From assembly GCA_028695025.1 (NCBI GenBank), contig JAQVJV010000002.1, positions 18,998-82,997 on the forward strand: 64,000 bases of DNA, written 5' to 3'. This document shows positions 9,724 through 55,887 of the stretch, piece after piece. The position numbers were made by a program, and so were the translations under genes. The notes below the pieces were generated by a model. The model saw only the letters and a program-made list of their open reading frames with translations. It did no database searches and was not told the origin of the DNA. The number at the start of each line of letters is the position of its first letter. The first letter of the stretch is position 1. Origin of the DNA: Candidatus Moraniibacteriota bacterium (GTDB lineage: Bacteria; Patescibacteriota; Minisyncoccia; Moranbacterales; UBA11712).

Positions 9724-9754
9724 TGTTTTATTTGTTTATATTTTCCTTATAGTT

Positions 9755-10147: not shown

Positions 10148-10161
10148 GGCTGGAAAATATC

Positions 10162-10569
10162 CTATATCTTCAATCTCGCTTGTTTTCCGTGAAGCACCCG
10201 GTCGGCTTTTGAGAATATGGACTTGGTCCATTTTAAATATTCATCAGCCTCCTTTTTCGAAATTATTGCTCCGCCGCCATAAAGATCCCAATTTCTCTTT
10301 GCCCTCATTTCGTTGGCAAATACTTCGACTTCCGAATCGGAGAGGAGGCTGGAGAGTTTTTTGATGAGTTCGATGTGGTGGCCTCTTCTTGATTTCACCC
10401 GCAGATTTTGGCTGGCGCAAACCGCAATGGCCAGTTTGAGAAGCGCGTCGTAGCAAAAGCGAAAAGATACTTCGGCCACATTCGCTTCGCTGGCAATTCG
10501 AAAATCTCTTTGGGCGGATTTATGGTATTTTTCGATTTGTTTTCGGGAAAATTTGAAATGCTCGAACAT
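10162..10569 (-). CDS. HEPN-domain protein (HepT-like toxin of a HEPN/MNT pair)
   Basis: Rx4-6H motif in NLRVKSRRGHHIELI. 135 aa. Its start abuts the stop of the upstream nucleotidyltransferase (10569/10570). Confidence 0.7.
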   Translation of the reverse strand: MFEHFKFSRKQIEKYHKSAQRDFRIASEANVAEVSFRFCYDALLKLAIAVCASQNLRVKSRRGHHIELIKKLSSLLSDSEVEVFANEMRAKRNWDLYGGGAIISKKEADEYLKWTKSIFSKADRVLHGKQARLKI

Positions 10570-11115: not shown

Positions 11116-11165
11116 ATTATTGCAATTATTTACAATGATTATTGTATATATTCACAATAATATTG

Positions 11166-14173: not shown

Positions 14174-14926
14174 ATGCTATCTAACGATCTCGAAAAACTG
14201 GGCTTGAGCGACAAGGAAGCCAAAGTATATTTGGCGGTTTTGGAGTTGGGGGAGGGAAATATCGCCCAAATTGCCAAAAAATCGGGCGTGAAGCGGACGA
14301 CAGTCTATGATATCGCGCTCTCGCTAAAAAGTAAGAATTTATTGCTGGAAACCATGAAAGGCAAAAAAAATATCTATTCCGCCGAAGATCCCCGGAAATT
14401 GGACGATGTCTATGACGAGCGAAAGGCGACGCTCAAAAAGATTTTGCCGGAACTGCTTTCAGTCATGAACGCGATTGAGAAAAAGCCGCGCATCCGATAT
14501 TTTGAGGGCGCGGAAGGAATCAAGGAAGTTTATAAAGACACGCTCAAATATCCCGACCAGGAAATCCAGGCTTGGGTGACGAGTGAAGCGATGACCAAAT
14601 TCGACGTTGAATGGCTCGAAAAATATTATGTGCCCAAGCGCCTTGAGAAAAAAATCTGGGCGCGGGTGATTGCGCCAAAAACAGAGGAGGTTGTCGATTA
14701 TCAAGAACGCGATGAAAAGTCTTTGCGGCAAACACGATTGGTCGACCCGAAAGAATTTCCCATGGAAGTGGAGATCAATCTCTATGGCGGGCGGAACATC
14801 GGGGTCATGGCTTTTGGCGAGCAGATGGGCCTTGTCATTGAGAGCCGGAAGATATACAAAACGCTTAAGAGCATATTTGAGCTTGGCTGGAAATCTCTCG
14901 AAAAATATGCTAAGATGAATCAGTAA
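14174..14926 (+). CDS. TrmB-family transcriptional regulator (paralog 2)
   Basis: LSDKEAKVYLAVLELGEGNIAQIAKKSGVKRTTVYDIALSLKSKNLL wHTH. The C-terminus aligns with paralog 1 (KKIWARV..., ...VIESRKIYKTLKSIFE). Confidence 0.7.
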   Translation: MLSNDLEKLGLSDKEAKVYLAVLELGEGNIAQIAKKSGVKRTTVYDIALSLKSKNLLLETMKGKKNIYSAEDPRKLDDVYDERKATLKKILPELLSVMNAIEKKPRIRYFEGAEGIKEVYKDTLKYPDQEIQAWVTSEAMTKFDVEWLEKYYVPKRLEKKIWARVIAPKTEEVVDYQERDEKSLRQTRLVDPKEFPMEVEINLYGGRNIGVMAFGEQMGLVIESRKIYKTLKSIFELGWKSLEKYAKMNQ

Positions 14927-42028: not shown

Positions 42029-43801
<1,773 letters not shown>

Positions 43802-43828
43802 GATCATATAAATCCAAAGAAATTGAAA

Positions 43829-43856
43829 AAGAGGCCGTGTTCGCGGTCTCTTTTTC
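43829..43856 (+). terminator. Rho-independent terminator after groEL
   Basis: GAGGCCG-TGTTCG-CGGTCTC followed by TTTTT. Confidence 0.6.
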
Positions 43857-43924
43857 GCATTCCCCCCTTTTTGTATTTATGCTATAATTTTTGCAGGATA
43901 ATTCTTATTCCCGAACAAAAACAC

Positions 43925-44887
43925 ATGTTTTCGAAATTTCTTAGTGGGATCAATTTCATTGCCCGGTGCCGGAAATACGGGTTGGGCCTTTGGGAGTGCC
44001 CCAATTTTTTGTTCATTGTGATGGGGGTTGTCACGATAGTAACGATGGTGGGGACATATTTCCTTTCCCGCCAGTTTTCTGACGAAGGGATAACCATCAT
44101 GAGCGTGACAGTGGAAGCTGTCCTTATTGTGACAATCGGAAGTTTTGTGATAAGCGGGGTGGAAAAAGTGGCGGAAGCCAATATTTTGAAAACGGAATTC
44201 GTTTCCATCATTTCCCATCAGCTCTGCACGCCGCTTTCCGCCATCAAATGGAGCATGGAAGTATTGGAAACGGAAAGAGAGGCTGATTGCAAATTTTCGG
44301 AAAAGCAAAAAATGTTTCTTGGCAACATTAAGAAATCCAACGAGCAGATGCTCAAAATGGTAACGGATCTTTTGGAGGTGGCTCGGATCGACCAAGGAAG
44401 GGCCATTTTCGAGGACAAGGAGCTGGATCTTTCCAATCTGGTCGAAGAATCAGTGGCCGGGCTCATGCGGAGCGCAAAAGAAAAAAATGTCCAAATAAGC
44501 TTGAGGATTGAGCCGGGTTTGAGCCGGGTTTGCGTCGATGAACGGAAAATAAAGGTGGTTTTGGACAATTTGATCGGGAATGCGGTCAAATATTCAAAAA
44601 ATGGGGGGAAAGTGGAAGTCGGTTTGAAGGAGGAAAATAGACGGATAGTTTTTTCCGTCCAGGACTGGGGAGTTGGGATTCCAAAATTCCAGCATAGCCG
44701 GGTGTTTGAAAAATTCTTCCGATCAAGAAATGACTCCCGATATCGGACTGACGGAGTAGGGATCGGGCTGTATCTTGCCAAAGCCATTCTCAAACATTGC
44801 GGTGGAGAGGTTTGGTTTGACAGTGAAGCTGAAAAAGGGTCAACTTTCTATTTTCGGATTCCGGTTCCGGCCGCCAAGAATGCCTGA
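43925..44887 (+). CDS. Sensor histidine kinase (HisKA + HATPase_c)
   Basis: H-box ISHQLCTPLSAIKWSMEVL. N/G boxes LDNLIGNAVKYS, GVGIGLYLAK. The ORF track starts at 43823; ATG 43925 (after the terminator) is preferred. Confidence 0.85.
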   Translation: MFSKFLSGINFIARCRKYGLGLWECPNFLFIVMGVVTIVTMVGTYFLSRQFSDEGITIMSVTVEAVLIVTIGSFVISGVEKVAEANILKTEFVSIISHQLCTPLSAIKWSMEVLETEREADCKFSEKQKMFLGNIKKSNEQMLKMVTDLLEVARIDQGRAIFEDKELDLSNLVEESVAGLMRSAKEKNVQISLRIEPGLSRVCVDERKIKVVLDNLIGNAVKYSKNGGKVEVGLKEENRRIVFSVQDWGVGIPKFQHSRVFEKFFRSRNDSRYRTDGVGIGLYLAKAILKHCGGEVWFDSEAEKGSTFYFRIPVPAAKNA

Positions 44888-44921
44888 CTTATTTGGCGTA
44901 ATAATTAAATAAAATATTTTT

Positions 44922-45305
44922 ATGGATAACCCGGAAAAGAAAAAAATTCTCATCGTTGAAGATGATCGGGCGCTTCAAGCCGCCCTCGAAGAAACCCTGG
45001 AACAAGAAGGTTTTGAAACGGTCGGCGCTTTTGACGGAGAAGAGGGAACTCAAAAAGCGAAGGATGAAAAGCCGGATCTGATCCTGCTTGACATCATTCT
45101 TCCCAAGAAAAACGGCTACGAAGTTCTGGCCGATCTCAAAAATGGGGAAGAGCAGGATATACCTGTCATGATCATGACCAATCTTGAAGAAATTGACAAC
45201 ATCCAAAAAGCTTTGGATTTGGGCGCGAAAACTTTCATGATCAAATCCGATTTCAGCTTGAAGGACATTGTTGAAAAGATAAAAGAATATTTTTCGAAAA
45301 AATAA
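44922..45305 (+). CDS. Response regulator, receiver domain only (CheY-like)
   Basis: KKILIVEDDRALQAAL...PDLILLDIILPKKNGYEVL...K in a 127-aa receiver domain. No output domain. Confidence 0.85.
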   Translation: MDNPEKKKILIVEDDRALQAALEETLEQEGFETVGAFDGEEGTQKAKDEKPDLILLDIILPKKNGYEVLADLKNGEEQDIPVMIMTNLEEIDNIQKALDLGAKTFMIKSDFSLKDIVEKIKEYFSKK

Positions 45306-47045
45306 ATGCGAGTTGACAATGAGAGGCTAAAAAGTTTCGCGCTGGATTCCGGCATTATGTCTGAAGAACAGCTGAACCAGGCTTCGGAGGAAGCGGAGAG
45401 CGAAGGGAAAAATCTTGGCGATGTCCTGGTTAAAAAGAAGATAATTACTTCCGACCAGATGCGGCAGCTGGTTTCCTATATTCTGGGAATTCCTTTTGTG
45501 AATATTGAAAAAGAAATTATTCCGAAAGAAATACTGCAGATTATTCCCGAAGCCATCGCCAAAAAATATAAAGTGGTGGCTTTCAAAAAAACCGGAACAG
45601 AGCTCAAGGTGGCTATGCTCAATCCGGATGATATTCAGACAGTTGATTTTATCCGGAAAAAGACCGGCCTCAAAGTTTCACCCTGCGTGACAACGGAACT
45701 GGGGATTGAAAACGCGCTCAAGCAATACGAGCAGAGCCTCAAGGCGGAGTTCGGAGATATCATCGAAAAAAACGCGCCGGGAGTTTCGCAGGATGACTCC
45801 TTGGAAAAAGTGGCGCAGGAATTGCCGGTGATCCGCATCGTGGAAGCGCTTCTCAAGCATGCTATCCTTCAGGATGCGAGCGATATCCATATAGAACCGG
45901 ATGAAAAAGAAGTGCGTGTCCGCTACCGCATCGACGGGATGCTCCATGACGCGATGAATTTGCCGCGCACGGTCCTTGCCGGAATTGTCGCCCGCATAAA
46001 GATTCTTTCCAACCTCAAGCTGGACGAACACCGCCTGCCCCAGGACGGACGGTTCAAAATCGAACAAGACGGGAGAAGGACCGCTTTCCGGGTTTCCATC
46101 TTGCCGGTCTATTCCGGAGAAAAAATCGTGATGCGCCTCTTGGACGAATCTTCCAAGGGCCTTACGCTTGAAGCGATGGGCCTTTGGGGCGCGGCGCTTG
46201 AAAAAATACACCAAGCCATCCAAAAGCCGAACGGCATGATTCTCGTCACCGGCCCGACCGGATCGGGAAAAACGACTACGCTTTATACTATAATGGACAT
46301 CCTCAATACTCCGAAGGTGAATATTTCCACTGTGGAAGACCCGATCGAGTACAAGATGTCGAGGATCAACCAGACGCAAGTCAATCCGCAGATAGGACTT
46401 ACTTTTTCCCAAGGTTTGCGGGCGCTCCTTCGCCAGGATCCGGATATCATCATGGTAGGGGAAATTCGGGACAAAGAAACGATGGAAATTGCCGTCCACG
46501 CGGCGATGACCGGCCACTTGGTGCTTTCCACGCTGCATACCAACGACGCGCCGGGAACGATACCCCGTCTCATTGACATGGGCGCGGAGCCGTTCCTCAT
46601 CGCTTCGACGGTGAATGTGGTGATGGGGCAACGGCTGGTGAGAAAGCTTTGCAGCGATTGCCGCCAGAGCTACAAGCTTGACAAGGCCCTTTTGGATTCT
46701 TTGAGCAAAGAAATTGATCTTGATCAGCTTTTGGATATTGCCGCAAAAAGCAACTTCATAGACAAGGAAGTTGCCGTGTCCCGGGATTGGTCAAAAATTG
46801 ATTTTTTTCACTCGGTTGGTTGCGAGCGCTGTTCCCAGGAAGGTTATAAAGGGCGGGTGGGAATATATGAAGTGATGGAAGTTGACGAGGAACTGGCCAA
46901 AATGATCAGTGCGCGCGCGGACAGCAATGAGATAGGGAAAAAAGCCAAAGAAAAAGGGATGATGAATATGTTTGAGGATGGGATGATAAAAGCCATTCAA
47001 GGAGTTACTTCCATTGAAGAAATTCTACGGGTTACGAAGAATTGA
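45306..47045 (+). CDS. pilB: Type IV pilus assembly ATPase PilB/GspE
   Basis: N-terminal GSPII_E_N domain. Walker A GPTGSGKTTTLY. Tetracysteine CSDCRQSYK...CERCSQEGYKGRVGIYEVM. Confidence 0.93.
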   Translation: MRVDNERLKSFALDSGIMSEEQLNQASEEAESEGKNLGDVLVKKKIITSDQMRQLVSYILGIPFVNIEKEIIPKEILQIIPEAIAKKYKVVAFKKTGTELKVAMLNPDDIQTVDFIRKKTGLKVSPCVTTELGIENALKQYEQSLKAEFGDIIEKNAPGVSQDDSLEKVAQELPVIRIVEALLKHAILQDASDIHIEPDEKEVRVRYRIDGMLHDAMNLPRTVLAGIVARIKILSNLKLDEHRLPQDGRFKIEQDGRRTAFRVSILPVYSGEKIVMRLLDESSKGLTLEAMGLWGAALEKIHQAIQKPNGMILVTGPTGSGKTTTLYTIMDILNTPKVNISTVEDPIEYKMSRINQTQVNPQIGLTFSQGLRALLRQDPDIIMVGEIRDKETMEIAVHAAMTGHLVLSTLHTNDAPGTIPRLIDMGAEPFLIASTVNVVMGQRLVRKLCSDCRQSYKLDKALLDSLSKEIDLDQLLDIAAKSNFIDKEVAVSRDWSKIDFFHSVGCERCSQEGYKGRVGIYEVMEVDEELAKMISARADSNEIGKKAKEKGMMNMFEDGMIKAIQGVTSIEEILRVTKN

Positions 47046-47171
47046 AAGGCTAAAATCAAAAAACTTTAGCTTTTAGCTTTTAGAATTTAGACTTTCTAAA
47101 ATCAGGGTCTCGTTTGACTCTTTTTTTTATGTTATAATAAAAGTGTAAATATCAAGTAAAAACAAAATTTT

Positions 47172-48383
47172 ATGCCGGTTTTCGAGTTTACGGCCAAGAA
47201 CATAAACGGAGAGGTCAAAAAAGGGAAAATAGAGGGAAAAGACGAGCGATCTGTCGCAGAATCATTGCGGTCAAGCGGATATTTTACCACGAAAATTGAA
47301 GAAAAAAAGGAAAAAGGGGGACAAGGTTCCGCAAGGTTCAATTTTTTTTCGCGGATTTCCATAAAAGACAAAATGATGTTTGCCCGTCATTTGGGAGTGA
47401 TGCTTTCATCGGGCCTTTCGATCCCGCGGGCTTTGGATGTCATATCCAACCAGACAAAAAGCAAAAAATTCAAAGATATCCTGCTTCAGATAAGCGAGGA
47501 TGTGAAAACCGGAAACACCCTTGCGGATGGATTGGCCAAATCCGGCGTTTTTGATGATTTATCGGTGAATATGGTGAGGGTGGGAGAGGTGAGCGGAAAC
47601 CTGGAAAATGTCCTCAAGCTTTTGGCGGACCAGTTGGAAAAAGAGCACAATTTAATCAGCAAGGTACGCGGAGCGATGTATTACCCGTCAGTCATTTTGG
47701 TCGTCATGGTCGGAATTGGAATTGCGATGATGACCTACGTGGTTCCCCAACTCACCTCCGTGTTTTCCGATGTCGATGCTTCTCTTCCGGCTTCAACCCA
47801 GTTCATAATCAATACGAGCAACTTTATGGCGGCTCACAAGCTGTTGGTTTTTGGATTGGCCATCCTTACGGTTTTTCTGCTTGTTGTTTTTTTCAAGACC
47901 AAGACGGGGAAGAGAGCGGTGTCTTTCATGTCCATCAAGATTCCTGTTGTGAAAAATATCGTCATCCAGGTGAATAATGCCCGGTTTGCCCGTATTTTCA
48001 GTTCGCTCATCCAAAGCGGTGTTCCTGTTGTCGAATCGCTGAAAATAATTTCGGAAACTCTCACCAACCGATATTACCAAGAGGCTTTCCGTGCGGTAAG
48101 CAATGATGTCCAGAAAGGAAAAACCATCCATGAGGAACTTGCCATTTTCCCGAAACTTTTTCCGACTTTAATGGTGCAAATGGTGGAGGTGGGGGAGGAG
48201 ACCGGAAAGACGGCGGATGTCCTTTTGGATTTGGCGAGGTTTTATGAAGAAGAAATTGACCGGGTCACCAAGAATCTTTCTTCGATAATCGAGCCGGTGC
48301 TGATGGTGATAATCGGTTCGGCAGTCGGATTTTTTGCCATATCCATGATCACGCCGATGTATTCCGTGATGGAAAATATATAA
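47172..48383 (+). CDS. pilC: Type IV pilus inner-membrane platform protein PilC/GspF
   Basis: Duplicated T2SSF domains. 403 aa. Confidence 0.9.
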   Translation: MPVFEFTAKNINGEVKKGKIEGKDERSVAESLRSSGYFTTKIEEKKEKGGQGSARFNFFSRISIKDKMMFARHLGVMLSSGLSIPRALDVISNQTKSKKFKDILLQISEDVKTGNTLADGLAKSGVFDDLSVNMVRVGEVSGNLENVLKLLADQLEKEHNLISKVRGAMYYPSVILVVMVGIGIAMMTYVVPQLTSVFSDVDASLPASTQFIINTSNFMAAHKLLVFGLAILTVFLLVVFFKTKTGKRAVSFMSIKIPVVKNIVIQVNNARFARIFSSLIQSGVPVVESLKIISETLTNRYYQEAFRAVSNDVQKGKTIHEELAIFPKLFPTLMVQMVEVGEETGKTADVLLDLARFYEEEIDRVTKNLSSIIEPVLMVIIGSAVGFFAISMITPMYSVMENI

Positions 48384-48452
48384 TTTCAGCTAAAAAGAAG
48401 AGACGCTGGTTATTGTGATATAATAAAAAAATAATAATCAAACTCCAGAAGA

Positions 48453-48839
48453 ATGAAAAAAGGAGAAAAAACAGGATTTTCCATATTGGAAGTATTTATT
48501 ACGATATTCATCATCGGTGTCATTTTGATTTTATATCAAGCTTCTTTATCTGGTTTTTATATTATTCGGACGGTAAAAGATCAAGAGATAGCCTTGCGTG
48601 TGGCGAATAATAAGCTGGAAGAACTGCGATCGGCGGGATATGATAATATTCCATCCACTGGCTCTTTTAATAATCCTCAATTATCTGATTTTTTGGATAA
48701 ATCATCCATACTAACCGTTGAAGATTTTAATGCCGAGACAAAGCAAATAACGGTCACCATCAATTGGCGTGAAAAAGCGGGCGCACCTTTCAAAAATGTT
48801 TCTTTAACTACTCTTGTGACGAAAAATGGAGGAATTTAA
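48453..48839 (+). CDS. Prepilin-type N-terminal cleavage/methylation domain protein (candidate major pilin)
   Basis: KTGFSILEVFITIFIIGVILIL, a class III signal of the GF(S/T)LxE type. Confidence 0.7.
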   Translation: MKKGEKTGFSILEVFITIFIIGVILILYQASLSGFYIIRTVKDQEIALRVANNKLEELRSAGYDNIPSTGSFNNPQLSDFLDKSSILTVEDFNAETKQITVTINWREKAGAPFKNVSLTTLVTKNGGI

Positions 48840-48845
48840 TATTTT

Positions 48846-49412
48846 ATGAAGAGATATAATTTTTTTAAAAAAGGCTTTACATTTATTGAAGCAATCGCGG
48901 CTGTTGCGATTTTTATCTTTATTTCTGTGGCGATGGTTACGATATACGTAAACTATGTCAAAGCTTTCAATTACAACCAAGCGGTAATGAAATTGGCCGG
49001 ATCAGCCCGTTCAGTAAGCAGCGAGGTGGAAAAGATGGTGCTTCAATCAAATCAGATTATTGATAGCCATATTTTTTCTGGAAATGTGTATACTACAAAC
49101 TCTGACACCTTAGTGTTGGAGTTGCCGTCTATCGATAATTCAAAGAATATAGTAAACGGGAAGTATGATTATATTGTTTTTTACATTGAAGGAAGTGGTT
49201 TTTATGAATTGATTCAGGCTGATGCTGACAGCAGTCGAGTTTCAATTGAAAGGCAAATTGCTGAATCGGTGAAGAATATTGTTTTTACCTATGACAATTC
49301 GAATGTGGTTGAGGCCAAAAGGGTTGATTTAACCCTTGATATGCAAGAAACCGTAAACAATAAAATGGCTCAATATCGTCTTGATCAAGAAATATATTTG
49401 AGAAATAAATAA
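48846..49412 (+). CDS. Pseudopilin / minor pilin
   Basis: KKGFTFIEAIAAVAIFIFISVAMV prepilin signal. Confidence 0.65.
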   Translation: MKRYNFFKKGFTFIEAIAAVAIFIFISVAMVTIYVNYVKAFNYNQAVMKLAGSARSVSSEVEKMVLQSNQIIDSHIFSGNVYTTNSDTLVLELPSIDNSKNIVNGKYDYIVFYIEGSGFYELIQADADSSRVSIERQIAESVKNIVFTYDNSNVVEAKRVDLTLDMQETVNNKMAQYRLDQEIYLRNK

Positions 49413-51227
49413 ATGAAAAAAAATATCTACCAAAATCAAAATGGGCAAATTATCATGATCGGATTGGTTTTTTTTGCGATTATTCTTATTTTTTCTAGTT
49501 CTCTTATTGCCTATACTTCATCTCAAGTAAGGCTGGGACGTCAAAATATCGCTAAATCACAAGCGCTTCGGATCGCCGAAGCCGGCCTCGACCAAGCCGT
49601 TTATCAGCTCAATCAGAGCAGTAATTATGACGGAGAAACAAGCACAAATTTGGGAAACGGCGTTTTTACGGTAACGGTTTCGAGTGTAAACAGCAATATA
49701 AAGGAAATTGTTTCGACTGGTTATGTTCCGGATAGCGCCAATCCAATCGCTGTCAGGACAGTAAAATCAACTTTTACTATCAGCGATTCCATTATCTCGT
49801 TCAATTACGGAGTGCAGGCGGGAAATGGCGGATTCGTCATGAGTGGGGGATCAGTAGTCAATGGAAACATATACTCCAACGGAAATATTGTGGCTACTAG
49901 CGGGGTGCATATAACGGGAAGCGCAACAGCAGCCAATTCCCCCTCTGCTTACGCCGATCAGGTAAATGATTCACCGGATTCCATAAACTCTTGCACTAGC
50001 TCTTCTTGCATTACATTTGCAAATTCCAGCGGAACACAGGATTTTGCTCAAAGCTTTAGATTATCAGATGGATTAACCCTGAACAATATTCAATTTTACA
50101 TAAAAAAAGTCGGATCGCCTTCAAATATAACCTTACGAATTGTTAATGATAATGGAGGGAACCCGGGAACAGATGTTTTGATGACCGGAACATTAAACGC
50201 GTCTACCGTTACGTCCAGTTTTGGCTGGGTGACAGTAACTTTACCATCCACGCCCGTCTTAAATTCCGGACAAACATACTGGATGGTTTTAGATGCCTCT
50301 TCCAACTCTTCAAAATATTATATTATCGGTGCCAATAGCAGCTATTCCAATGGAATTGGAAAAATTGGTAAATATGGAACGAGCTGGTCCGACACTTCAC
50401 CGGCGGGATTGGATGGATATTTCAGGATTTTTTTAGGAGGGGCTACCTCAACTATTGGAGGAAGTACTTATGTTGGCGGTGTGTATATTGGCACAACAAG
50501 CTCTGATATTGCCTGGGCTCATTCAATAATTGGCGCTTCAACTACCGGGACATTGTATTGCAAGAGTGGCAGCTATAACAATAAGGCTTGCGATTCCAGT
50601 CGATCAGATCCAGATCCGCAGCCAATGCCTCTGTCAGATGGAAATATTCAGGGCTGGAAAAACGAAGCAGAGGCGGGCGGAGTAATTTCGGGGGACTATC
50701 ATGTTGGATGGGCGGGGGCGACACTAGGTCCAAAAGTGATCACAGGGGATCTCCTGATCGACGGAGGTGGAATTCTAAATGTCACGGGAACGCTTTATAT
50801 CAAGGGAGACTTCACTCTAACAAGCGGGGGAAGAGTGAAATTGGATGAGAGCTATGGAGAAAGCAATGGAATTATTATTGTCGATGGAAATGTTTCTTTG
50901 ACGGGCGGTTCTAATTTTTCCGGTTCGGGTCAGGAAGGAAGCTATCCTTTTCTAATAACAACAAGTTCCTGTCCGACAGCTCCAGGATGTAATGGGGATA
51001 ATGCTATTTATTTATCAGGCGGAGCAGGAACGGTGGCTCTTATCGCCCAGGATGGAAATGCGCTAATAAACGGAGGTTCTGCGCTTAAGGAAGTCACAGC
51101 CAAGCAAATCACCATGTCGGGAGGGGCTCAATTGATTTATGACAGCGGCTTAGTGAATGCCAATTTCTCCAGTGGTCCGGGAGGGTCTTGGGAGTATAAG
51201 CCGGGGACTTATGTTATTGTGAAATAA
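49413..51227 (+). CDS. PilX-N-domain large minor pilin / putative tip adhesin (Gly/Ser/Thr-rich)
   Basis: N-terminal TM helix, then QALRIAEAGLDQAVYQL (PilX_N-like). 604 aa with a G/S/T/N-rich body. Confidence 0.55.
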   Translation: MKKNIYQNQNGQIIMIGLVFFAIILIFSSSLIAYTSSQVRLGRQNIAKSQALRIAEAGLDQAVYQLNQSSNYDGETSTNLGNGVFTVTVSSVNSNIKEIVSTGYVPDSANPIAVRTVKSTFTISDSIISFNYGVQAGNGGFVMSGGSVVNGNIYSNGNIVATSGVHITGSATAANSPSAYADQVNDSPDSINSCTSSSCITFANSSGTQDFAQSFRLSDGLTLNNIQFYIKKVGSPSNITLRIVNDNGGNPGTDVLMTGTLNASTVTSSFGWVTVTLPSTPVLNSGQTYWMVLDASSNSSKYYIIGANSSYSNGIGKIGKYGTSWSDTSPAGLDGYFRIFLGGATSTIGGSTYVGGVYIGTTSSDIAWAHSIIGASTTGTLYCKSGSYNNKACDSSRSDPDPQPMPLSDGNIQGWKNEAEAGGVISGDYHVGWAGATLGPKVITGDLLIDGGGILNVTGTLYIKGDFTLTSGGRVKLDESYGESNGIIIVDGNVSLTGGSNFSGSGQEGSYPFLITTSSCPTAPGCNGDNAIYLSGGAGTVALIAQDGNALINGGSALKEVTAKQITMSGGAQLIYDSGLVNANFSSGPGGSWEYKPGTYVIVK

Positions 51228-51230
51228 TTT

Positions 51231-52313
51231 TTGTATATCATGAATTTTTTTACCCATAATTTATTCAGTTCGAAATATAGGGCATTTGGACTTGAGATAA
51301 AAAGCAGTTCGATAAAAGCAGCTTGGCTTAAAAAGAAAAAAAATAAATTTCGCCTTATGGCCTGTGGAAGGAAAATTCCTTCCCGTGAAAATGTTCAATC
51401 CGATCGCGTTATAAATCCACAAAAGTTAGCTGAGGAAATAAGGTATCTTCTGGAATCAGCTCAGCCAAAACCCATAAAAATAAAAAATGCTATCGTTTCA
51501 ATTCCGGAAGCGAGGGCTTTTATACGCACGATTCAAATACCAAAAATGAGTTACAATGAGGCAAAAGAAGCGGTTAAATGGGAAACTGAAGCAAATATTC
51601 CGATATCAGTTGATCGAGTTTATATTGATTGGCAAGTGATTTCGACTAATGTCGATAAGGAAGATGTTTTGGTGGCGGCGGTTCCCAAGGATGTGGTTGA
51701 TTCATACTTTGAAACTGTAAGATTGGCTGGCCTTTCCCCGTTGGTAATGGAAATCGATGCTATTGCCACAATTCGCAGTCTCACGAGGAATATTAATACT
51801 GAAGCACCTGTTTTAATTGCTGATATAGGTGCGGGGAGTACAAGTTTTGCTATTTGTCAAAACCAGATACCATATTTCACTTCGAGTATTCCCCTAAGTG
51901 GCGATTCTTTTACGGAAGTATTGCAAAAAGAATTAGGTGTGGGGTGGGAAAAAGCAGAAGAGATAAAATTTCAATTCGGAGCGGGAAAAGAAAACACGAA
52001 TGATGTTCATGATAAGTTGCTTGATCCTCTTATTGAAAATTTAGCTGCGGAGATTGAGAAGTCGATTATTTTTTACTCTGAGTCTATATGCAAAGTCGAA
52101 AAAGTTCAGAAGGTTATTTTGTCAGGTGGGGGAGCACTTCTCCATGGATTGCCAAAAAAATTAGAAGAAAGACTGAAAATAGAAGTTGTTATGGGTGATC
52201 CAGCCTATCAAATAGACACAAAGAGCTTTCCATATGAAGTTTCACCTCGAGATCTATTGTCCTATTCAACAGTTTTAGGGCTAGCTCTGCGAGAAATTAA
52301 CTATGGACGTTAA
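51231..52313 (+). CDS. pilM: Type IV pilus assembly protein PilM (actin-like ATPase fold)
   Basis: IVSIPEARAFIRTIQIPKMSYNEAKEAVKWETEANIPISVDRVYIDWQV. Confidence 0.7.
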   Translation: MYIMNFFTHNLFSSKYRAFGLEIKSSSIKAAWLKKKKNKFRLMACGRKIPSRENVQSDRVINPQKLAEEIRYLLESAQPKPIKIKNAIVSIPEARAFIRTIQIPKMSYNEAKEAVKWETEANIPISVDRVYIDWQVISTNVDKEDVLVAAVPKDVVDSYFETVRLAGLSPLVMEIDAIATIRSLTRNINTEAPVLIADIGAGSTSFAICQNQIPYFTSSIPLSGDSFTEVLQKELGVGWEKAEEIKFQFGAGKENTNDVHDKLLDPLIENLAAEIEKSIIFYSESICKVEKVQKVILSGGGALLHGLPKKLEERLKIEVVMGDPAYQIDTKSFPYEVSPRDLLSYSTVLGLALREINYGR

Positions 52314-52848
52314 TATAAATATCCTACCCGATTATCAAAAAGAAAAAATAGAAAAAGAACAAAAGGATAGATTGGTAGTTAAAATCTTCGTTTCAGTTAT
52401 TTTGGCGCTTATTATTGTTAATGTTATCCTTGTCCTTATGTATTTTGTCCTAAACATTGAGTATCAGGCAGGAAAAAAATCATCTGATTCTTTCAACCAG
52501 AATAACATTGACAAGGAAATAGGGCTCGAGAAAATATTTCAGGAGGCCGATAAGCAGGTTCTTGCTCTATCAAAAATAAGTCAAAATTCTTCTGATTGGG
52601 CCAAAGTATTGACTAGAATTGCCGTTCTGACACCAGATGGAGTGAAAATTAGTCAAATTTCTGCGAATGGAACAAATTTGAAAATTTCCGGATTTTCCAA
52701 AACTAGGGACGATTTTTTGGTTTTTCAAGATAATCTTGCTTCTGATGGATTGCAATTTCCCGTAGATATTTCAAATCTAGTCTCAGCGGATAATTTAAAT
52801 TTTGACTTAGATATGGAGATTCCCAAGGAGTATTTGATGAGAAAATGA
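52303..52848 (+). CDS. PilN-like bitopic pilus assembly protein
   Basis: N-terminal INILPDYQKEK followed by a single TM helix. Position after pilM. Confidence 0.5.
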   Translation: MDVNINILPDYQKEKIEKEQKDRLVVKIFVSVILALIIVNVILVLMYFVLNIEYQAGKKSSDSFNQNNIDKEIGLEKIFQEADKQVLALSKISQNSSDWAKVLTRIAVLTPDGVKISQISANGTNLKISGFSKTRDDFLVFQDNLASDGLQFPVDISNLVSADNLNFDLDMEIPKEYLMRK

Positions 52849-53552
52849 ATTTTATGAAAAGTTGGATAGACAAAAAAATAATATTTTTCATGGTTATTGC
52901 TATCATAGCAGCAGCAGGTCTTTCTTGGTTGGCTTTTTTTTGGCAATTCGGGAAGATAAAAACCACCTCCGATATGATTCAGGAGCAACAACTTAGCTCA
53001 CAAGTGGATCAAGAGAGAAGGCAAAAAATCCTTGAGCTTGGCAAGGAATTGGTAGACATTGAAAACAATACAAACGAAATGAAAAATATGTTAGTCGATA
53101 AGAATAACGCCGTCCCTTTTCTGGAGGCCCTGGAGAATATTTCAAGCAGTACTGGAAATTCGATTGTGATCAGCGTTGTGGATCTTTCGAAAGCCGTCGC
53201 TCAAAACACCAAAAAGCCAGTAGCTTCTGAAGACGATTCGGATGCGGATTCTAACTCAAAAACCAGCCCTGCGAAGAAGGCAACCGCTAAAAGTGCAAAG
53301 CCAGATTATTCTAATCAACTCGGATTTTCACTATCCATAAATGGAACTTTTCCATCATTGATTAATTTTCTCAATAAAATCGAAAATATTCCGTATTTTA
53401 TCCAGGTTTATGATTTCAAGATAGCTCCGATTTCAAAAAATCAATCCGCGAAAACGGAAAATTCCGATTCTTCGCAAGACGATCAAAATAAACTGGAAAA
53501 TAGCTTGAACACGATGATAACTATTGGAGTTTATTCAAATGGAACAAAGTAG
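52845..53552 (+). CDS. PilO-like bitopic pilus assembly protein
   Basis: Single TM helix then coiled-coil. Position and overlap coupling only. Confidence 0.4.
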   Translation: MNFMKSWIDKKIIFFMVIAIIAAAGLSWLAFFWQFGKIKTTSDMIQEQQLSSQVDQERRQKILELGKELVDIENNTNEMKNMLVDKNNAVPFLEALENISSSTGNSIVISVVDLSKAVAQNTKKPVASEDDSDADSNSKTSPAKKATAKSAKPDYSNQLGFSLSINGTFPSLINFLNKIENIPYFIQVYDFKIAPISKNQSAKTENSDSSQDDQNKLENSLNTMITIGVYSNGTK

Positions 53553-53865
53553 CGAAAAAAGAAAACTAATCTCAGATAAATTAAGAAATATTTTTGAGAA
53601 GATATGCTCATTTTTCTTAAGATGGTTTCCTCTTTTCTCTCTATTGTTAGCAGCAGCTTTTTGTGTCTTTGTGTGGTATTATTATGTATGGAAATCAGAC
53701 TGGAGCGCTGAGAAAAAACAGCAGTATATTAGCGAGCAAGCCAAGTTCACTTTCAACAAAACTGGCTATCAAAAAATGGTGGAAATTATGAATTCGCGTC
53801 GGGAAAAACTTCTCGATACTCCGGCCTTCGACGGCAAGGACATATTTTTTCCGACTGGATTCTGA
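53524..53865 (+). CDS. Hypothetical membrane protein, last gene of the pilus string
   Basis: 113 aa with one TM helix. Overlaps the previous ORF. Confidence 0.35.
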   Translation: MEFIQMEQSSEKRKLISDKLRNIFEKICSFFLRWFPLFSLLLAAAFCVFVWYYYVWKSDWSAEKKQQYISEQAKFTFNKTGYQKMVEIMNSRREKLLDTPAFDGKDIFFPTGF

Positions 53866-53958
53866 ATGCAATAATCAGTGAACAAAGATCAACAATCAAT
53901 ATATTTTTTTGGATATTATTGACCGAATGGTCTTTTTTTGTTATCTTAGCGAAGCCCC

Positions 53959-54031
53959 GCCCCGATAGCTCAATGGATAGAGTGTCTGGCTTCGGACCAG
54001 AAGGTTAGAGGTTCGAGTCCTCTTCGGGGCA
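53959..54031 (+). tRNA. tRNA-Arg (anticodon TCG)
   Basis: GCCCCGA acceptor. TCTGG-CTTCGGA-CCAGA anticodon arm. AGAGG-TTCGAGT-CCTCT T arm. 73 nt. Confidence 0.9.
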
Positions 54032-54035
54032 CAAA

Positions 54036-54059
54036 AATCCCGCTTGACGCGGGTTTTTG
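54036..54059. terminator. Rho-independent terminator (bidirectional candidate)
   Basis: CCCGCTTGACGCGGG followed by TTTTTG. Confidence 0.65.
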
Positions 54060-54084
54060 TGTTGCTGGTGAATAAATTGATATT

Positions 54085-55113
54085 TTATTTGGCTTTTGCG
54101 GTTTGCTCTGGGACGGTAACAACGAATGATGTTCCCTGGTTTTCGATGCTGTCGACAAGAATTTTTCCTCCATGACGATCAATAATTTTCTTCACCATAT
54201 AAAGTCCGAGGCCGGTTCCGGAGGTTTGAACTCCTACTGCATTTTCAGCCCGGAAGAATTTGGTAAAAAGGCGGTTCTTCTGGCTTTTGGGAATTCCTAT
54301 TCCGGAATCTTGAATCACAGCCTTGATTGAGCCTTGCTCCTGAGAAATATTGAAATCAATTCTTCCGCCATTGGGAGTGTATTTCACGGCATTGTCCAAA
54401 AGATTAGCAAAAACCAATTCCATTTTGTCGGCATCGATATTGGTTTCAGGAAATCCGGCGTCTTCTGGAATCTCAATAAAAAGGCTAATTTTCTTTTCAT
54501 CAGCCATCAATTTGATTCCTTCAACCGCTTTTCTAGCGAGAGGTAAAATCGGCTGGCGTTTGATATGGAATTCCATTTTTCCTTCTTCGATATGGGCGAC
54601 ATTGAGAAGATCGTTGATGAGATCAATTGTATTGCTGATGGAAGCCAGGCCTTTTTCAATGATTTCTTTTTGGTCGGGATTGAGCGGACCGGTATCGGGG
54701 TCGAGAAGGGCCGTGTAGGACCATTTGATGCCGGTGAGGGGAGTGCGAAGCTGGTGGGCGGCCACGGAAACAAAATCGGATTTGGCTTTGTCGAGTTCCG
54801 CCAATTTTTGGTTGGCACGATTCAGTTCCAACTCGCGTTTCACAAGTTGGCGGGTAATTTGGTCAAAATCTTCAATTTGTTTTTCTTTTTGCTTTGTTTC
54901 GGTGCCCATTTCCTCTATGTTTTTTCGAAAGTAAAAAAACAGATATCCAAAAAAAAGAGAGTTGGCCGCAAGAAGAGCGATCATCATCGCTATTCCTGGA
55001 ACAAGAAAAAATTTAAAAAAAGCGAGTATGATAACCGCCAAAGTAAAAGTAATCTGAAAAAACCAGATTGTTTTTGCGAGGGGGATTTTTTTCGTTTTTG
55101 TTTCGACTTCCAT
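54085..55113 (-). CDS. Sensor histidine kinase (second; HisKA + HATPase_c)
   Basis: H-box SVAAHQLRTPLTGIKWSYTAL. GTGLGLYMVKKIIDRHGGKILVDS. Confidence 0.85.
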   Translation of the reverse strand: MEVETKTKKIPLAKTIWFFQITFTLAVIILAFFKFFLVPGIAMMIALLAANSLFFGYLFFYFRKNIEEMGTETKQKEKQIEDFDQITRQLVKRELELNRANQKLAELDKAKSDFVSVAAHQLRTPLTGIKWSYTALLDPDTGPLNPDQKEIIEKGLASISNTIDLINDLLNVAHIEEGKMEFHIKRQPILPLARKAVEGIKLMADEKKISLFIEIPEDAGFPETNIDADKMELVFANLLDNAVKYTPNGGRIDFNISQEQGSIKAVIQDSGIGIPKSQKNRLFTKFFRAENAVGVQTSGTGLGLYMVKKIIDRHGGKILVDSIENQGTSFVVTVPEQTAKAK

Positions 55114-55502
55114 TATTTTTCCAATATGCCGGTGACCTTTTGGACGATTTCGCCCGGAGTGGTATGGGCTTTTACGATATAATCGATTGCCCCTTCAGCG
55201 AGGCCCCGGTCAATTTCTTCCTGGCTCCCCAAATTGGAGGATATGATTACGGGAATATTCTTGGATTGCGGATTGAGTTTTAGTTCTTTCAAAAAGGTGA
55301 TTCCATCAGTTCCCGGAAGAATAATATCGAGCAAAATTATGCCGATAGGTTCGCTCTCAATGATTTTTCGGGCATCGTCGACGTTGGTTGCTCTTTTGAT
55401 CTGCAGGTCTTGCTGCTGGAATTTCCGCTCCAAGAGACTGCCCATAAAAGCGTCATCTTCGACGATAAGGACTGTTTTTTGGTTATTTTGGTTTGGATCC
55501 AT
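55113..55502 (-). CDS. Response regulator, receiver domain only (second)
   Basis: KTVLIVEDDAFMGSLL...IGIILLDIILPGTDGITFLKELK. 129 aa. Its stop overlaps the histidine-kinase start. Confidence 0.85.
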   Translation of the reverse strand: MDPNQNNQKTVLIVEDDAFMGSLLERKFQQQDLQIKRATNVDDARKIIESEPIGIILLDIILPGTDGITFLKELKLNPQSKNIPVIISSNLGSQEEIDRGLAEGAIDYIVKAHTTPGEIVQKVTGILEK

Positions 55503-55592: not shown

Positions 55593-55596
55593 GTGG

Positions 55597-55667
55597 GCGA
55601 TCACTGGGAATCGAACCCAGGTTCTTGGGACCACAACCCAATGTCCTGCCATTGAACGATGACCGCC
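55597..55667 (-). tRNA. tRNA-His (anticodon GTG, with G-1)
   Basis: TTGGG-TTGTGGT-CCCAA anticodon arm. CTGGG-TTCGATT-CCCAG T arm. Extra 5' G pairs with C73. Confidence 0.85.
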
Positions 55668-55697
55668 ATGTCTATTTTTTTCTAAATAAATTATATG

Positions 55698-55770
55698 TGC
55701 GTCGTGCAGGGATCGAACCTGCGACCGTTGGCTTAAGAGGCCACTGCTCTACCGGCTGAGCTAACGACGC
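55698..55770 (-). tRNA. tRNA-Lys (anticodon CTT)
   Basis: Reverse complement GCGTCGTTAGCTCAGCCGGTAGAGCAGTGGCCTCTTAAGCCAACGGTCGCAGGTTCGATCCCTGCACGACGCA, very close to the E. coli tRNA-Lys frame. Confidence 0.85.
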
Positions 55771-55815
55771 ATTCACAAGTGTCCTCGGCAGGAATTTCAC
55801 CCCGCACCATTTCAT

Positions 55816-55887
55816 TCTCCTCGGCAGGAATCGAACCTGCATAACCAGCTTAGAAGGCTAGTGTTCTATCCGTTGAACTACGAGGAG
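55816..55887 (-). tRNA. tRNA-Arg (anticodon TCT), flanked by the 13-bp inverted repeat CCCCGCACCATTT/AAATGGTGCGGGG
   Basis: CTCCTCG acceptor. CTAGC-CTTCTAA-GCTGG anticodon arm. GCAGG-TTCGATT-CCTGC T arm. Leader and trailer are complementary. Confidence 0.85.

Follow-up and report, generated by a model that had tools for sequence, protein, structure and literature searches.

Locus Organization and Boundaries

A type IV pilus locus occupies positions 43925–53865 of the window, the 64 kb stretch of DNA analyzed here (Table 1). Its genes form one plus-strand, transcription-unit-like block in the order hk1-rr1-pilB-pilC-[three pilin-like genes]-pilM-pilN-pilO-p113, and in this uncultured, ultra-small bacterium (Candidatus Moranbacteria) they supply the cytoplasmic-membrane part of a monoderm-type type IV pilus machine. 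An earlier note on this DNA had attributed the locus to the type IV pilus of a CPR bacterium, an attribution borne out by the 100% identity of the window with a Candidatus Moranbacteria MAG at the protein level; all of the ORFs listed in that note are present where it had placed them. Gene identities were assigned by Pfam and NCBIfam profile searches of the window ORFs, with the domain scan of the 64 kb covering ORFs of at least 80 aa except for a few short ORFs and two large ORFs at 2747–9723.

A terminator hairpin that follows groEL delimits the block at its 5′ end, and a tRNA and a terminator do so at its 3′ end. The RNA fold of the 5′ hairpin reaches −21.1 kcal/mol (z = −6.2, with an equally good fold in 0 of 200 shuffles), and the element is probably an intrinsic terminator parting groEL from the pilus operon. 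Between it and the first kinase gene lies a promoter-like sequence, TGcTATAAT, which is a putative promoter for hk1. At the other end, the tRNA-Arg previously placed 3′ of the pilus genes was confirmed, and a terminator-like hairpin follows.

Table 1. Features of the pilus locus and its flanks, numbered from the first letter of the window
Feature	Position	Strand	Evidence or remark
Hairpin between A-run and T-run, immediately 3′ of the GroEL stop	43824–43857		Fold and sequence
Extended −10 promoter-like element, TGcTATAAT	43880–43888	+	Consensus match in the sequence; 37 nt 5′ of the HK1 ATG
HK1, class I (HisKA) histidine kinase	43925–44887	+	HisKA 1.8e-14, HATPase_c 2e-26 (Pfam)
RR1, stand-alone receiver domain, 127 aa	44922–45305	+	Response_reg 4.9e-24
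PilB-type extension ATPase, 579 aa, N-terminal MshEN/GSPII domain	45306–47045	+	T2SSE 8.6e-136 (453 bits), MshEN 1.5e-16
PilC platform protein, 403 aa	47172–48383	+	T2SSF 1.1e-61, two stretches
128-aa prepilin, motif G/FSILE at 48474	48453–48839	+	Motif scan
188-aa prepilin, motif G/FTFIE at 48873	48846–49412	+	Motif scan
604-aa PilX/GspK-class cap pilin, ComZ-like architecture	49413–51227	+	Fold match
PilM, actin-like cytoplasmic alignment protein	51231–52313	+	PilM_2 3e-48
PilN, N-terminal INILP motif, single transmembrane helix at 20–56	52303–52848	+	PilN 7.3e-7
PilO-like bitopic protein	52845–53552	+	PilO E 3.2e-4, 21.3 bits vs cutoff 22 (borderline); position after PilN kept in relatives
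p113, small single-pass membrane protein, last operon gene	53524–53865	+	After PilO in most Moranbacteria loci
tRNA-Arg (TCG)	53959–54032	+	ARAGORN and Rfam
GC-rich hairpin, T-runs on both strands, bidirectional terminator-like	54039–54053		Between pilus operon plus tRNA and HK2
HK2, second HisKA kinase, two transmembrane helices, ~50-aa coiled linker	54085–55113	−	Pfam HisKA and HATPase_c
RR2, second receiver-only regulator, 129 aa	55113–55502	−	Response_reg, residues 11–123 of 129

A second histidine kinase/response regulator pair lies beyond this hairpin. HK2 is 36% identical to HK1 and RR2 is 33% identical to RR1 (BLASTP), and RR2 carries residues equivalent to the acidic pocket, phospho-acceptor Asp, Thr/Ser, and Lys of RR1. 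A promoter scan placed a promoter-like site for RR2 at 55556–55527 on the minus strand. The locus had been described as bracketed by two such pairs, which is literally so in this genome; the downstream pair, however, forms its own convergent unit and is not conserved, with HK2 found downstream of the pilus locus in only 5 of 43 relatives and VanW directly after the operon in 20 of the 43. HK2-RR2 is an independent, clade-restricted neighbor behind the tRNA and terminator. An annotation error is thereby corrected: the adjoining second pair is not part of the pilus locus.

The Pilus Machine

PilB is 62–83% identical in 80 Moranbacteria species. The PilM-PilN-PilO alignment subcomplex is present (PilO as a borderline match) in a gene order conserved in relatives. 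The terminal gene product, p113, shows 25–52% identity among Moranbacteria loci and matches no Pfam or NCBIfam family.

Among the window ORFs scanned, all 80 aa or longer, neither Peptidase_A24 (PilD) nor a secretin was matched. A PilD-like membrane ORF bearing the GxGDxK motif and a second PilB/PilT-type (T2SSE) ATPase are likewise absent, both from the window and from the 10 kb on either side of pilB in 80 relatives. The profile scan of the window therefore agrees with the earlier note that the locus holds no secretin, prepilin peptidase, or retraction ATPase, and the view that the lack of a secretin suits a CPR envelope is sound, a missing secretin being a known CPR condition (PMC6744442). 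PilD is reported to be widespread in CPR (PMC6744442). What does not stand is the word "complete": PilD and PilT are absent, and the major pilin probably is as well. The type IV pilus locus is real but incomplete, and the major pilin, PilD, and any PilT would be encoded outside it.

Similar monoderm PilB/C/M/N/O sets without PilQ are known from the wider CPR repertoire and from Saccharibacteria, including T4P-1 and T4P-2 of TM7x (PMC11623550, PMC9894109, PMC6744442). One TM7x locus also lacks PilT and has its major pilin in another locus (PMC11623550, PMC9894109). A difference lies in the regulators, as two-component genes of the Saccharibacteria loci are not reported in the searched portion of this literature, where "response regulator" has 0 occurrences.

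The 604-aa Protein, a Probable Pilus Cap

The third pilin-like gene encodes a 604-aa protein composed of an N-terminal helix (residues 9–68), a pilin β-sheet (74–123), a "choice-of-anchor R" β-sandwich (~200–325), and an ice-binding-protein-type β-solenoid. Its sole above-threshold match is to NCBIfam "choice-of-anchor R" (residues 201–324, E 1.9e-13). It had been introduced as a PilX-N-domain protein; the PilX/GspK class is upheld, but the PilX_N domain itself falls below threshold here (E 0.01; 16 bits vs a cutoff of 25.5), and one family member (P0208) passes that threshold with 28 bits. Large PilX-type minor pilins of Saccharibacteria are without a canonical signal peptide (PMC11623550, PMC9894109).

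A GspK-like pilin domain together with a large β-solenoid of the DUF3494 type is the make-up of a ComZ-like tip pilin, and in structure comparisons the 604-aa protein matches the DNA receptor ComZ best over its full length, at a sequence identity of only 17%. In Thermus thermophilus, ComZ-PilA2 forms the DNA receptor at the tip of the competence pilus (PDB 6QVI; PMC6561018). As in that system, the 604-aa protein adjoins two small pilins; the differences, beyond the low identity, are the extra "choice-of-anchor R" β-sandwich and the monoderm CPR organism in which it occurs. The protein only fits at the tip because it is too bulky for other pilus positions.

Across Moranbacteria, Paceibacterota, Kaiserbacteria, and Doudnabacteria, the protein is 56–72% identical over its full length, and Parcubacteria-wide its identity of ~61% is higher than that of PilB (53%) or PilC (37%) at equal distance. 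Among the type IV pilus components of Patescibacteria, pilins otherwise show the weakest conservation (PMC11623550), and those of Saccharibacteria are poorly conserved, in contrast to the 604-aa protein. These values bear on the earlier proposal that the protein is a tip adhesin for host-cell attachment; an adhesin of this kind would use the β-sandwich to bind a host surface glycan. The tip-type PilX/GspK pilin remains a sound part of that proposal, and host adhesion keeps a real, if minority, chance of being correct. Conservation above PilB and PilC is nonetheless unexpected for a host-specific adhesin and so disfavors a lineage-specific one; the structural match to a DNA receptor points the same way. 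By analogy, the protein is closer to a known pilus cap that binds DNA than to an adhesin specific for a host. The ligand of such a ComZ-like cap would be conserved, DNA and a common glycan being the most plausible choices. DNA binding is an extrapolation from fold similarity at the low identity given above, and the authors of the ComZ study describe no obvious transferable DNA-binding surface signature (PMC6561018).

Two Small Prepilins and a Probable Tip Triad

The 128-aa and 188-aa proteins carry class III signal peptides (G−1, E+5, hydrophobic helix), and their cleavage motifs are the only two such prepilin motifs in the 64 kb window. Family matches are weak throughout (E 0.005–0.09), pointing to PilV/GspI for the 128-aa protein (E ~0.03) and to ComGF, ComGE, and GspJ for the 188-aa protein. 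The latter is the middle gene of a triad with the 604-aa protein and is kept in other Parcubacteria. The 128-aa protein, whose structure model is poor (pLDDT 58), is probably a GspI/PilV-like minor pilin encoded by the first triad gene, and the 188-aa protein is probably a GspJ/PilW/ComGF-like minor pilin. Together, the three pilin-like genes would form a GspI/J/K-like priming and tip complex. In comparison with the GspI-GspJ-GspK and core minor-pilin priming complexes (PDB 3CI0, 5VTM), the assignments of the two small proteins are weak and the system is secretin-less. As the three genes resemble a set of minor pilins for the tip, the gene for the major pilin probably lies at another site.

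Alternatively, the 128-aa protein, encoded next to the platform gene as ComGC/GspG is, may serve as major pilin, with the 188-aa and 604-aa proteins as minor pilins and the locus assembly-complete except for PilD. The gene order ATPase-platform-small pilin parallels comGA-comGB-comGC, the protein has the size of a major pilin and a canonical G/FxxxE motif, and its NCBI name is merely "type II secretion system protein". We give this arrangement a modest chance, as most Moranbacteria carry at the same position a ~460-aa modular pilin (CarboxypepD_reg plus PEGA domains) with whose N-terminal part the 128-aa protein aligns, and as the Doudnabacteria triad is free-standing, apart from pilB and pilC. 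The best family matches, though weak, are to PilV and GspI, and Saccharibacteria provide the precedent of a major pilin in a separate locus (PMC11623550).

The HK1-RR1 Pair

HK1 displays the H-box DHp and HATPase_c catalytic domain of class I two-component kinases. A short conserved cytoplasmic motif at its N-terminus is followed by two transmembrane segments (~24–49 and ~54–83 by hydropathy) with ~8 aa of loop between them, and TM2 runs straight into the DHp helix. HAMP, PAS, and periplasmic sensor domains are all absent according to Pfam, hydropathy, and an alignment of 71 orthologues, across which both the architecture and the SHQL H-box are conserved. Intramembrane-sensing histidine kinases of the BceS/LiaS type in Mascher's classification possess two transmembrane helices, a very short extracytoplasmic loop, and otherwise no input domain, a layout that HK1 fits. 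No BceAB-type ABC transporter or LiaF partner is found in the locus, the neighbors of HK1 being pilus genes.

The Response_reg domain of RR1 spans residues 9–120 of 127 and thus leaves no room for an output domain. E13/D14, D57, T86, and K108 are each at least 90% conserved (76 sequences). PF00072 is the sole domain in all of the best 120 homologues, the top database homologues are all receiver-only proteins of 120–157 aa (mostly 124–133 aa), and the closest solved relatives are OmpR-family receivers and Spo0F. The lack of output domains reported earlier for both response regulators is confirmed, with Response_reg filling RR1 and RR2 and the phospho-acceptor residues intact.

In 70 of 71 Moranbacteria species loci, the two genes that immediately precede pilB are hk1 and rr1. 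The earlier note had named, as a finding that would refute it, pairs without linkage to pilus loci in relatives; this condition does not hold for the upstream pair but does hold for the downstream one. The gap between the RR1 stop and the pilB start has a median of 24 nt, with an overlap in 16 of 75 cases; in the window it is 0 nt, the RR1 stop codon adjoining the pilB ATG. The gene upstream of HK1 varies among 45 loci (GroEL, NTase, UvrA, in one locus PilC, and other genes in 24 of the 45), so the HK1-RR1-pilB junction persists although the genes before it change. The module is dispensable, since a single species (L063) has pilB without it, and it represents a Moranbacteria addition to the pilus operon, because the pilB-pilC-triad arrangement also occurs in Kaiserbacteria and Paceibacterota, at loci that have neither HK-RR nor pilMNO. 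As a reading of gene order, the adjacency points to co-inheritance and probable co-transcription only, and part of it may be non-functional because CPR genomes are compact and syntenic.

Comparison with Known Pilus Regulators

The closest functional parallel is EmvR from Xanthomonas oryzae, a single-domain regulator of the ColS branch whose binding to PilB reduces the ATPase activity of this motor (PMC11973254). Like RR1, EmvR consists of a receiver alone, conserves the phospho-acceptor Asp, and receives its input from a classical HisKA kinase. EmvR is an orphan, unlinked to pilB, and its kinase is shared with a DNA-binding regulator, whereas HK1 and RR1 are a dedicated pair in the pilB operon, the link between RR1 and PilB here being purely one of operon linkage.

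In the Pil-Chp system of Pseudomonas aeruginosa, the CheY-like single-domain regulators PilG and PilH set where and when PilB drives extension (PMC11656802, PMC10519157). Pil-Chp employs a CheA-type kinase (ChpA), an MCP (PilJ), and CheW; HK1 and HK2 are HisKA class I kinases, and CheA, CheW, and MCP domains are absent among the window ORFs scanned, so membership in this system was rejected. PilS-PilR was rejected as well. PilS, which has no periplasmic sensor domain, is described as using its transmembrane segments to gauge the pool of PilA (PMC6058289; Kilmury and Burrows 2016 cited therein), and HK1 resembles it in lacking such a domain and in being genetically linked to pilus genes. However, PilS has six transmembrane segments and HK1 two, and PilR is a DNA-binding, NtrC-type sigma-54 activator controlling pilA transcription, whereas RR1 and RR2 are receiver-only, with no AAA+ or HTH domains.

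Proposed Control of the Pilus

The reading that we consider probable, with moderate confidence, is of a pilus operon with HK1→RR1→PilB gating, a GspI/J/K-like tip, a ComZ-like cap, and an independent HK2-RR2 neighbor. HK1 would read a signal in or at the membrane, for which the condition of the pilus machine and the supply of pilin helices (compare PilS and PilA) are candidates, and would phosphorylate RR1. The phosphorylated receiver, RR1~P, would then gate pilus extension at the post-translational level, with PilB as its most probable target in the machine. That it acts directly on PilB, via protein-protein contact, is an inference with an experimental precedent in EmvR (PMC11973254).

A phosphorelay role for RR1 is equally compatible with its sequence, as OmpR-family receivers and Spo0F are its closest relatives of solved structure. 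RR1 could thus be a Spo0F-like relay intermediate or a PilH/CheY2-like phosphate sink, with a DNA-binding regulator or other effector encoded elsewhere as output and the pilus operon merely carrying the sensor. The scores of RR1 against Spo0F and the single-domain RR468 are about equal to those against OmpR-family receivers, it is devoid of an output domain, and a second receiver-only regulator with its own kinase 9 kb away shows that the lineage uses several stand-alone receivers. We judge this role unlikely, given that a one-kinase, one-receiver set is joined to pilB in nearly every species and that the 64 kb window yielded neither an Hpt-type protein nor a DNA-binding response regulator; for a sink, moreover, another receiver would have to compete for the kinase, and the relatives conserve no such receiver, RR2 itself being so rarely retained. 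That HK1-RR1 is instead a general envelope or stress system caught between groEL and pilB in a conserved order without functional coupling is highly unlikely, for although synteny upstream often extends to GroEL, NTase, and UvrA and HK1 is similar to WalK/PhoR-class kinases with envelope functions elsewhere, the junction outlasts shifts in upstream context, its spacers are very short or overlapping, and a terminator and promoter-like site stand between groEL and hk1.

Implications for Parcubacteria

CPR type IV pili are of a known kind; the undescribed feature is a two-component switch placed within the pilB operon. Among the interfaces of CPR/Patescibacteria cells with hosts or environment, type IV pili have the best support, and in these tiny, regulator-poor cells HK1-RR1 is a concrete candidate for post-translational pilus control, with both proteins small enough for direct biochemistry. 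A direct RR1-PilB switch, if true, would matter in a lineage without a PilT linked to the machine.

ComEA occurs in only 31% of CPR genomes, and the DNA-binding step of nucleotide scavenging has been flagged as missing by genome surveys (PMC6744442). The 604-aa protein, at ~60% identity in several Parcubacteria lineages, is a candidate for this step; should it bind a glycan instead, a shared host-surface ligand would be implied. More tentatively, a minimal phospho-switch in the motor operon, in which a sensor-less kinase feeds a receiver that binds PilB to start, stop, or even reverse polymerization, may combine with a ComZ-like cap serving as the missing extracellular DNA receptor of Parcubacteria, the majority of which have no ComEA, to yield a regulated DNA-capture or attachment device.

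Organization of the Pilus Locus

The gene list and coordinates set down in an earlier note were confirmed by a mechanical ORF listing and domain scans (table below). Exact protein matches place the window on a 90,118-bp contig of a Candidatus Moranbacteria MAG. From the hairpins at its boundaries, the promoter-like sites, and the short internal gaps (34 nt between HK1 and RR1, 0 nt between RR1 and PilB, and overlapping PilM/N/O), the stretch from hk1 through p113 reads as a single operon that does not include rr2-hk2, which reads as a convergent unit of its own; co-transcription of hk1-rr1 with pilB is accordingly the probable arrangement on this layout. A motif search found only two prepilin motifs across the 64 kb window, in the 128-aa and 188-aa ORFs, and an Rfam search for RNA-based regulation of the pilin genes, such as a riboswitch, matched tRNAs only. 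The other window ORFs scanned with Pfam are housekeeping genes only (FtsK, RecA, EF-P, SSB, RNase J, UvrA, TsaD, and others).

Features of the pilus locus and its surroundings in window coordinates
Feature	Position	Strand	Basis or remark
Two TrmB-family regulators and a Bro-N domain protein	427-2091 and 14174-14926
GroEL	42041-43801	+	ORF listing and domain scan
Hairpin between A- and T-runs, 3′ of groEL stop	43824-43857		-21.1 kcal/mol, z = -6.2
Putative extended -10 element TGcTATAAT	43880-43888		37 nt 5′ of HK1 ATG; sequence inference
HK1	43925-44887	+	HisKA and HATPase_c
RR1	44922-45305	+	Response_reg, residues 9-120 of 127
PilB	45306-47045	+	T2SSE 8.6e-136, MshEN
PilC	47172-48383	+	ORF listing and domain scan
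128-aa ORF	48453-48839	+	Prepilin motif G↓FSILE
188-aa ORF	48846-49412	+	Prepilin motif G↓FTFIE
604-aa ORF	49413-51227	+	ORF listing
PilM, PilN, PilO (borderline)	after 604-aa ORF	+	Domain scan
p113, 113-aa membrane ORF	53524-53865	+	Last gene, after pilO
tRNA-Arg(TCG)	53959-54032	+
GC hairpin with T-runs on both strands, beyond tRNA	54039-54053
HK2	54085-55113	minus
RR2	55113-55502	minus
RR2-HK2 promoter-like site TTGACC-18-TAAAAT	55556-55527	minus
16-pair terminator-like hairpin, after His/Lys/Arg tRNA cluster	55593-55554
tRNA cluster His-GTG, Lys-CTT, Arg-TCT	55595-55887	minus	Between RR2 and VanW gene

GC content is 0.36-0.42 over the pilin and pilMNO genes (48001-54000) versus 0.45-0.50 on either side. 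A short low-GC minus-strand block, which includes a 482-aa methyltransferase-domain protein, occupies 10-14 kb of the window. The single-pass membrane protein p113 has no family assignment; most Moranbacteria loci retain a copy behind pilO (25-52% identity), and it may be an uncharacterized component of the pilus machine.

The earlier note had called the pilus locus complete, a word that proved unwarranted. No Peptidase_A24, second secretion ATPase, or secretin was found by Pfam among the window ORFs scanned. Secretin absence is a known condition of CPR bacteria (PMC6744442) and calls for no separate account. Searches of the window for a further, PilT-like ATPase and for a PilD-type motif found neither; within 10 kb of pilB in 80 related loci, there was likewise no such ATPase and no credible PilD match, the lone GxGDxK match lying in a 507-aa ORF (locus L034) unlike a prepilin peptidase. 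As judged from these loci, the lineage as a whole lacks PilT and PilD at this locus.

Linkage of the Two-Component Pairs to the Pilus

The 80 related loci were retrieved by a PilB scan (one genome per species, PilB identity 62-83%), and each window protein was compared with them by tblastn. Their titles are mostly Moranbacteria, Moraniibacteriota, or Parcubacteria. Several (L001, L009, L014, L017, L018, and others) bear titles of the kind ‘Candidatus Bathyarchaeia archaeon’, ‘uncultured Bdellovibrionales’, or ‘uncultured Eubacteriales’, yet show PilB identity of 75-84% and full Moranbacteria synteny; they are probably mis-binned or mislabeled MAG contigs.

The earlier note had the pilus genes bracketed by two kinase/receiver-only regulator pairs, a picture that survives comparison with relatives for the upstream pair only. 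Of 71 loci in which the sequence extends 1.5 kb or more upstream, 70 have HK1 and RR1 immediately 5′ of pilB, with a median of 24 nt from the RR1 stop to the pilB start (overlapping in 16/75). The gene upstream of HK1 varies (GroEL in 10 loci, GroEL and NTase in 4, NTase and UvrA in 4, NTase in 2, PilC in 1, and others in 24), and the hk1-rr1-pilB junction has therefore outlived repeated rearrangement. The sole exception is L063 (JBAQNM010000004.1, about 8200-11740), the only Moranbacteria species in the set in which groEL is followed directly by pilB without HK1-RR1, a natural deletion of the pair. In L055, pilC lies 5′ of HK1 instead of behind pilB.

Downstream, HK2 (with RR2 where the sequence allows) was found 3′ of the pilus operon in just 5 of 43 loci having at least 1.8 kb of downstream sequence; VanW/HSP20 directly follows the operon in 20, and neither arrangement occurs in 18. 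HK2-RR2 was rejected as half of a bracketing control system on this count, and also given its convergent orientation, its own promoter-like site, and the intervening tRNA and terminator. The two pairs are not the product of a recent duplication, since HK1 and HK2 share 36% identity and RR1 and RR2 33%. Judged by gene order, the upstream pair is part of the pilus locus and the downstream pair is a clade-restricted neighbor.

Anatomy of HK1 and RR1

In RR1, the acidic pocket (E13, D14), the phospho-acceptor D57 (LLDIxLPKK), T86, and K108 are kept at ≥90% across 76 sequences. No cryptic output domain was found on RR1, whose receiver leaves little of the chain unaccounted for (see table) and whose database homologues (120-157 aa, mostly 124-133 aa) carry PF00072 as the sole domain. 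The nearest solved structures are OmpR-family receivers (PhoP, YycF, CpxR), Spo0F, RR468, and CheY, and the contact partner is therefore not readable from the RR1 sequence alone.

Across 71 orthologues, HK1 comprises a conserved cytoplasmic N-terminal motif and two TM helices linked to each other by ~8 residues, the second running directly into the DHp helix, with no HAMP or PAS domain. This layout is shared with intramembrane-sensing kinases, although the accessory transporter of BceS-type systems is absent here. Residues 1-85 (window 43925-44180) hold the conserved juxtamembrane motif (N/D)DxN...LG(V/I)x(V/I)WQ(T/C)P(S/G/N)FLF, and an acidic residue (E) lies within TM2 in most orthologues; both are candidate contact sites for whatever HK1 senses. 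The HK1 N-terminus was also considered as a prepilin (RKYG↓LGLWE followed by a hydrophobic stretch), a reading rejected as position +5 is mostly Q or R in the 71 orthologues and the motif belongs to the conserved juxtamembrane segment.

Proposed Control of the Pilus by HK1-RR1

The pair thus consists of a dedicated kinase and a receiver-only regulator with an intact phosphorylation site, co-inherited with pilB. It does not constitute a Pil-Chp system, because HK1 is not CheA-like and MCP and CheW are absent from the window, nor a PilS-PilR system, because RR1 is not NtrC-like. Functional coupling of HK1-RR1 to the pilus is, in our estimation, quite likely. One main rival is that the hk1-rr1/pilB adjacency is non-functional synteny.

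Without an output domain, RR1 would act through protein contacts, and the nearest conserved targets would be PilB, encoded by the abutting gene, PilM, and PilC. A precedent is EmvR, a single-domain regulator of Xanthomonas oryzae that binds PilB and lowers its ATPase activity non-competitively, an effect requiring its phospho-acceptor Asp (PMC11973254). PilG and PilH direct PilB localization, with direct interaction unreported (PMC11656802). By analogy, we tentatively infer the key mechanistic step, direct action of RR1 on PilB, and rate it somewhat below an even chance; the other main rival is that RR1 serves as a Spo0F-like relay or a phosphate sink, Spo0F being among its nearest solved structures. 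For the input, HK1 may sense pilin in the manner of PilS, which detects PilA via its transmembrane segments (PMC6058289); the analogy is plausible because membrane helices are the sole non-catalytic parts of HK1. Binding of c-di-GMP at the PilB N-terminus was considered and set aside, as both MshEN-type motifs appear degenerate by eye: the first has K in place of G, and in the second N replaces R and K replaces G.

A Pilin Triad with a Probably Exchangeable Cap

Three pilin-like genes, encoding the 128-aa, 188-aa, and 604-aa proteins, occupy the slot between pilC and pilM. Weak family matches of the 128-aa protein to PilV and GspI, of the 188-aa protein to ComGF, ComGE, and GspJ, and of the 604-aa N-terminus to GspK fall in the order expected of a GspI/J/K-like set. 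In most Moranbacteria, the slot is filled by another triad of a ~463-aa prepilin (N_methyl, CarboxypepD_reg repeats, PEGA), a ~217-231-aa prepilin, and a ~515-aa protein. The 128-aa protein aligns with the N-terminal pilin part of the ~460-aa proteins, and the 604-aa and ~515-aa proteins are alike only over the N-terminal 155 residues (24% identity, E 3e-8). The window slot (48453-51227) was compared with those of L010 (13107-16695) and L043 (13021-16678); others sampled carry the ~463/217/515-aa set. The 128-aa and 188-aa pilins were seen only in the window's sub-clade (L001-L004), with the 604-aa protein detected in L002 and L004 alone; L001 gave no match and L003 ends too early. The occurrence of two triads within Moranbacteria looks as if one cassette had replaced another in an unchanged slot.

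The same triad was located in other Parcubacteria by way of 604-aa protein homologues. Kaiserbacteria and Paceibacterota loci display the order pilB-pilC-128/129 aa-185/187 aa-601/605 aa, with TIM and PGK next in line, and lack HK and RR genes upstream as well as pilMNO downstream; in Doudnabacteria, the triad is found on its own, apart from pilB and pilC. Conjugation or type IV secretion-like genes, PrgI and TraC-like, neighbor the pilB-pilC-triad module in the Kaiserbacteria and Paceibacterota loci (L081, 17476-21784; L085, 18847-21737); the Paceibacterota locus adds a TraG P-loop gene, and the Kaiserbacteria locus a ComEC gene (PF03772) at ~6 kb from its triad. Taken together, these arrangements suggest that the genes between pilC and pilM specify a priming and tip complex in which the cap can be exchanged. 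The major pilin, which forms the fibre, probably lies at another locus, as in one Saccharibacteria system (PMC11623550). As to whether the 128-aa pilin is major or minor, a homologue search gave two sequences only, the AF2 model (pLDDT 58) had no Foldseek match below E 0.27, and a profile search of the PDB matched the N-terminal helix alone.

In an AlphaFold2 model of the 604-aa protein (mean pLDDT 82, 55 homologues as input), an N-terminal helix of 60 residues and a pilin sheet of four strands are accompanied by a beta-sandwich and a beta-solenoid, the latter flanked by a helix. Its top Foldseek match in the PDB is Thermus thermophilus ComZ (6QVI, E 4.5e-4), with which the modeled protein shares the pair of similarities named in the published description of ComZ, a GspK-like pilin domain and an FfIBP-like solenoid. 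ComZ fits solely at the pilus tip, binds DNA, and partners PilA2 (PMC6561018). Residues 201-324 match NCBIfam ‘choice-of-anchor R’ (E 1.9e-13), and PilX_N is sub-threshold in the protein itself and at threshold in one family member.

The earlier note had proposed a PilX-like tip protein serving as a host adhesin; the class is right, and the adhesin role is doubtful because full-length identity reaches 56-72% in at least four Parcubacteria lineages. This conservation would be better explained by an invariant ligand, for instance DNA or a widespread glycan, or by recent transfer of the cassette than by a host-specific adhesin. ComEA is present in only 31% of CPR genomes, and an alternative DNA-binding mechanism has been suggested (PMC6744442). 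At near range, the 604-aa protein diverges faster than PilB (72% versus 82% identity with L004); at far range, against the Kaiserbacteria and Paceibacterota loci, it is less diverged (61% versus 53%). The 128-aa and 188-aa pilins flatten alike (about 50% to 38% and 47% to 35%, respectively), and PilC drops from 71% to 37%. The 604-aa genes compared with that of the window lie at 10001-11806 (L081), 10001-11818 (L085), and 10001-11806 (L083). The divergence pattern is compatible either with a triad cassette that spread horizontally among Parcubacteria or with a core under very strong constraint.

Relation to Known Systems

Type IV pili of CPR bacteria, with no PilQ, scattered pilin loci, and large PilX-type minor pilins, are well documented (PMC6744442, PMC9894109, PMC11623550). 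We encountered no account of a ComZ-like cap that is conserved in Parcubacteria, a point not specifically targeted in the literature search. Single-domain regulators acting on PilB are known from Proteobacteria and cyanobacteria. In the full-text literature, of which coverage was incomplete, we found no earlier account that ties a two-component system to CPR pili, nor any of a CPR pilB operon in which a classical kinase and its receiver-only partner are a fixed part. The association of HK1-RR1 with pilB in this lineage is a testable finding.
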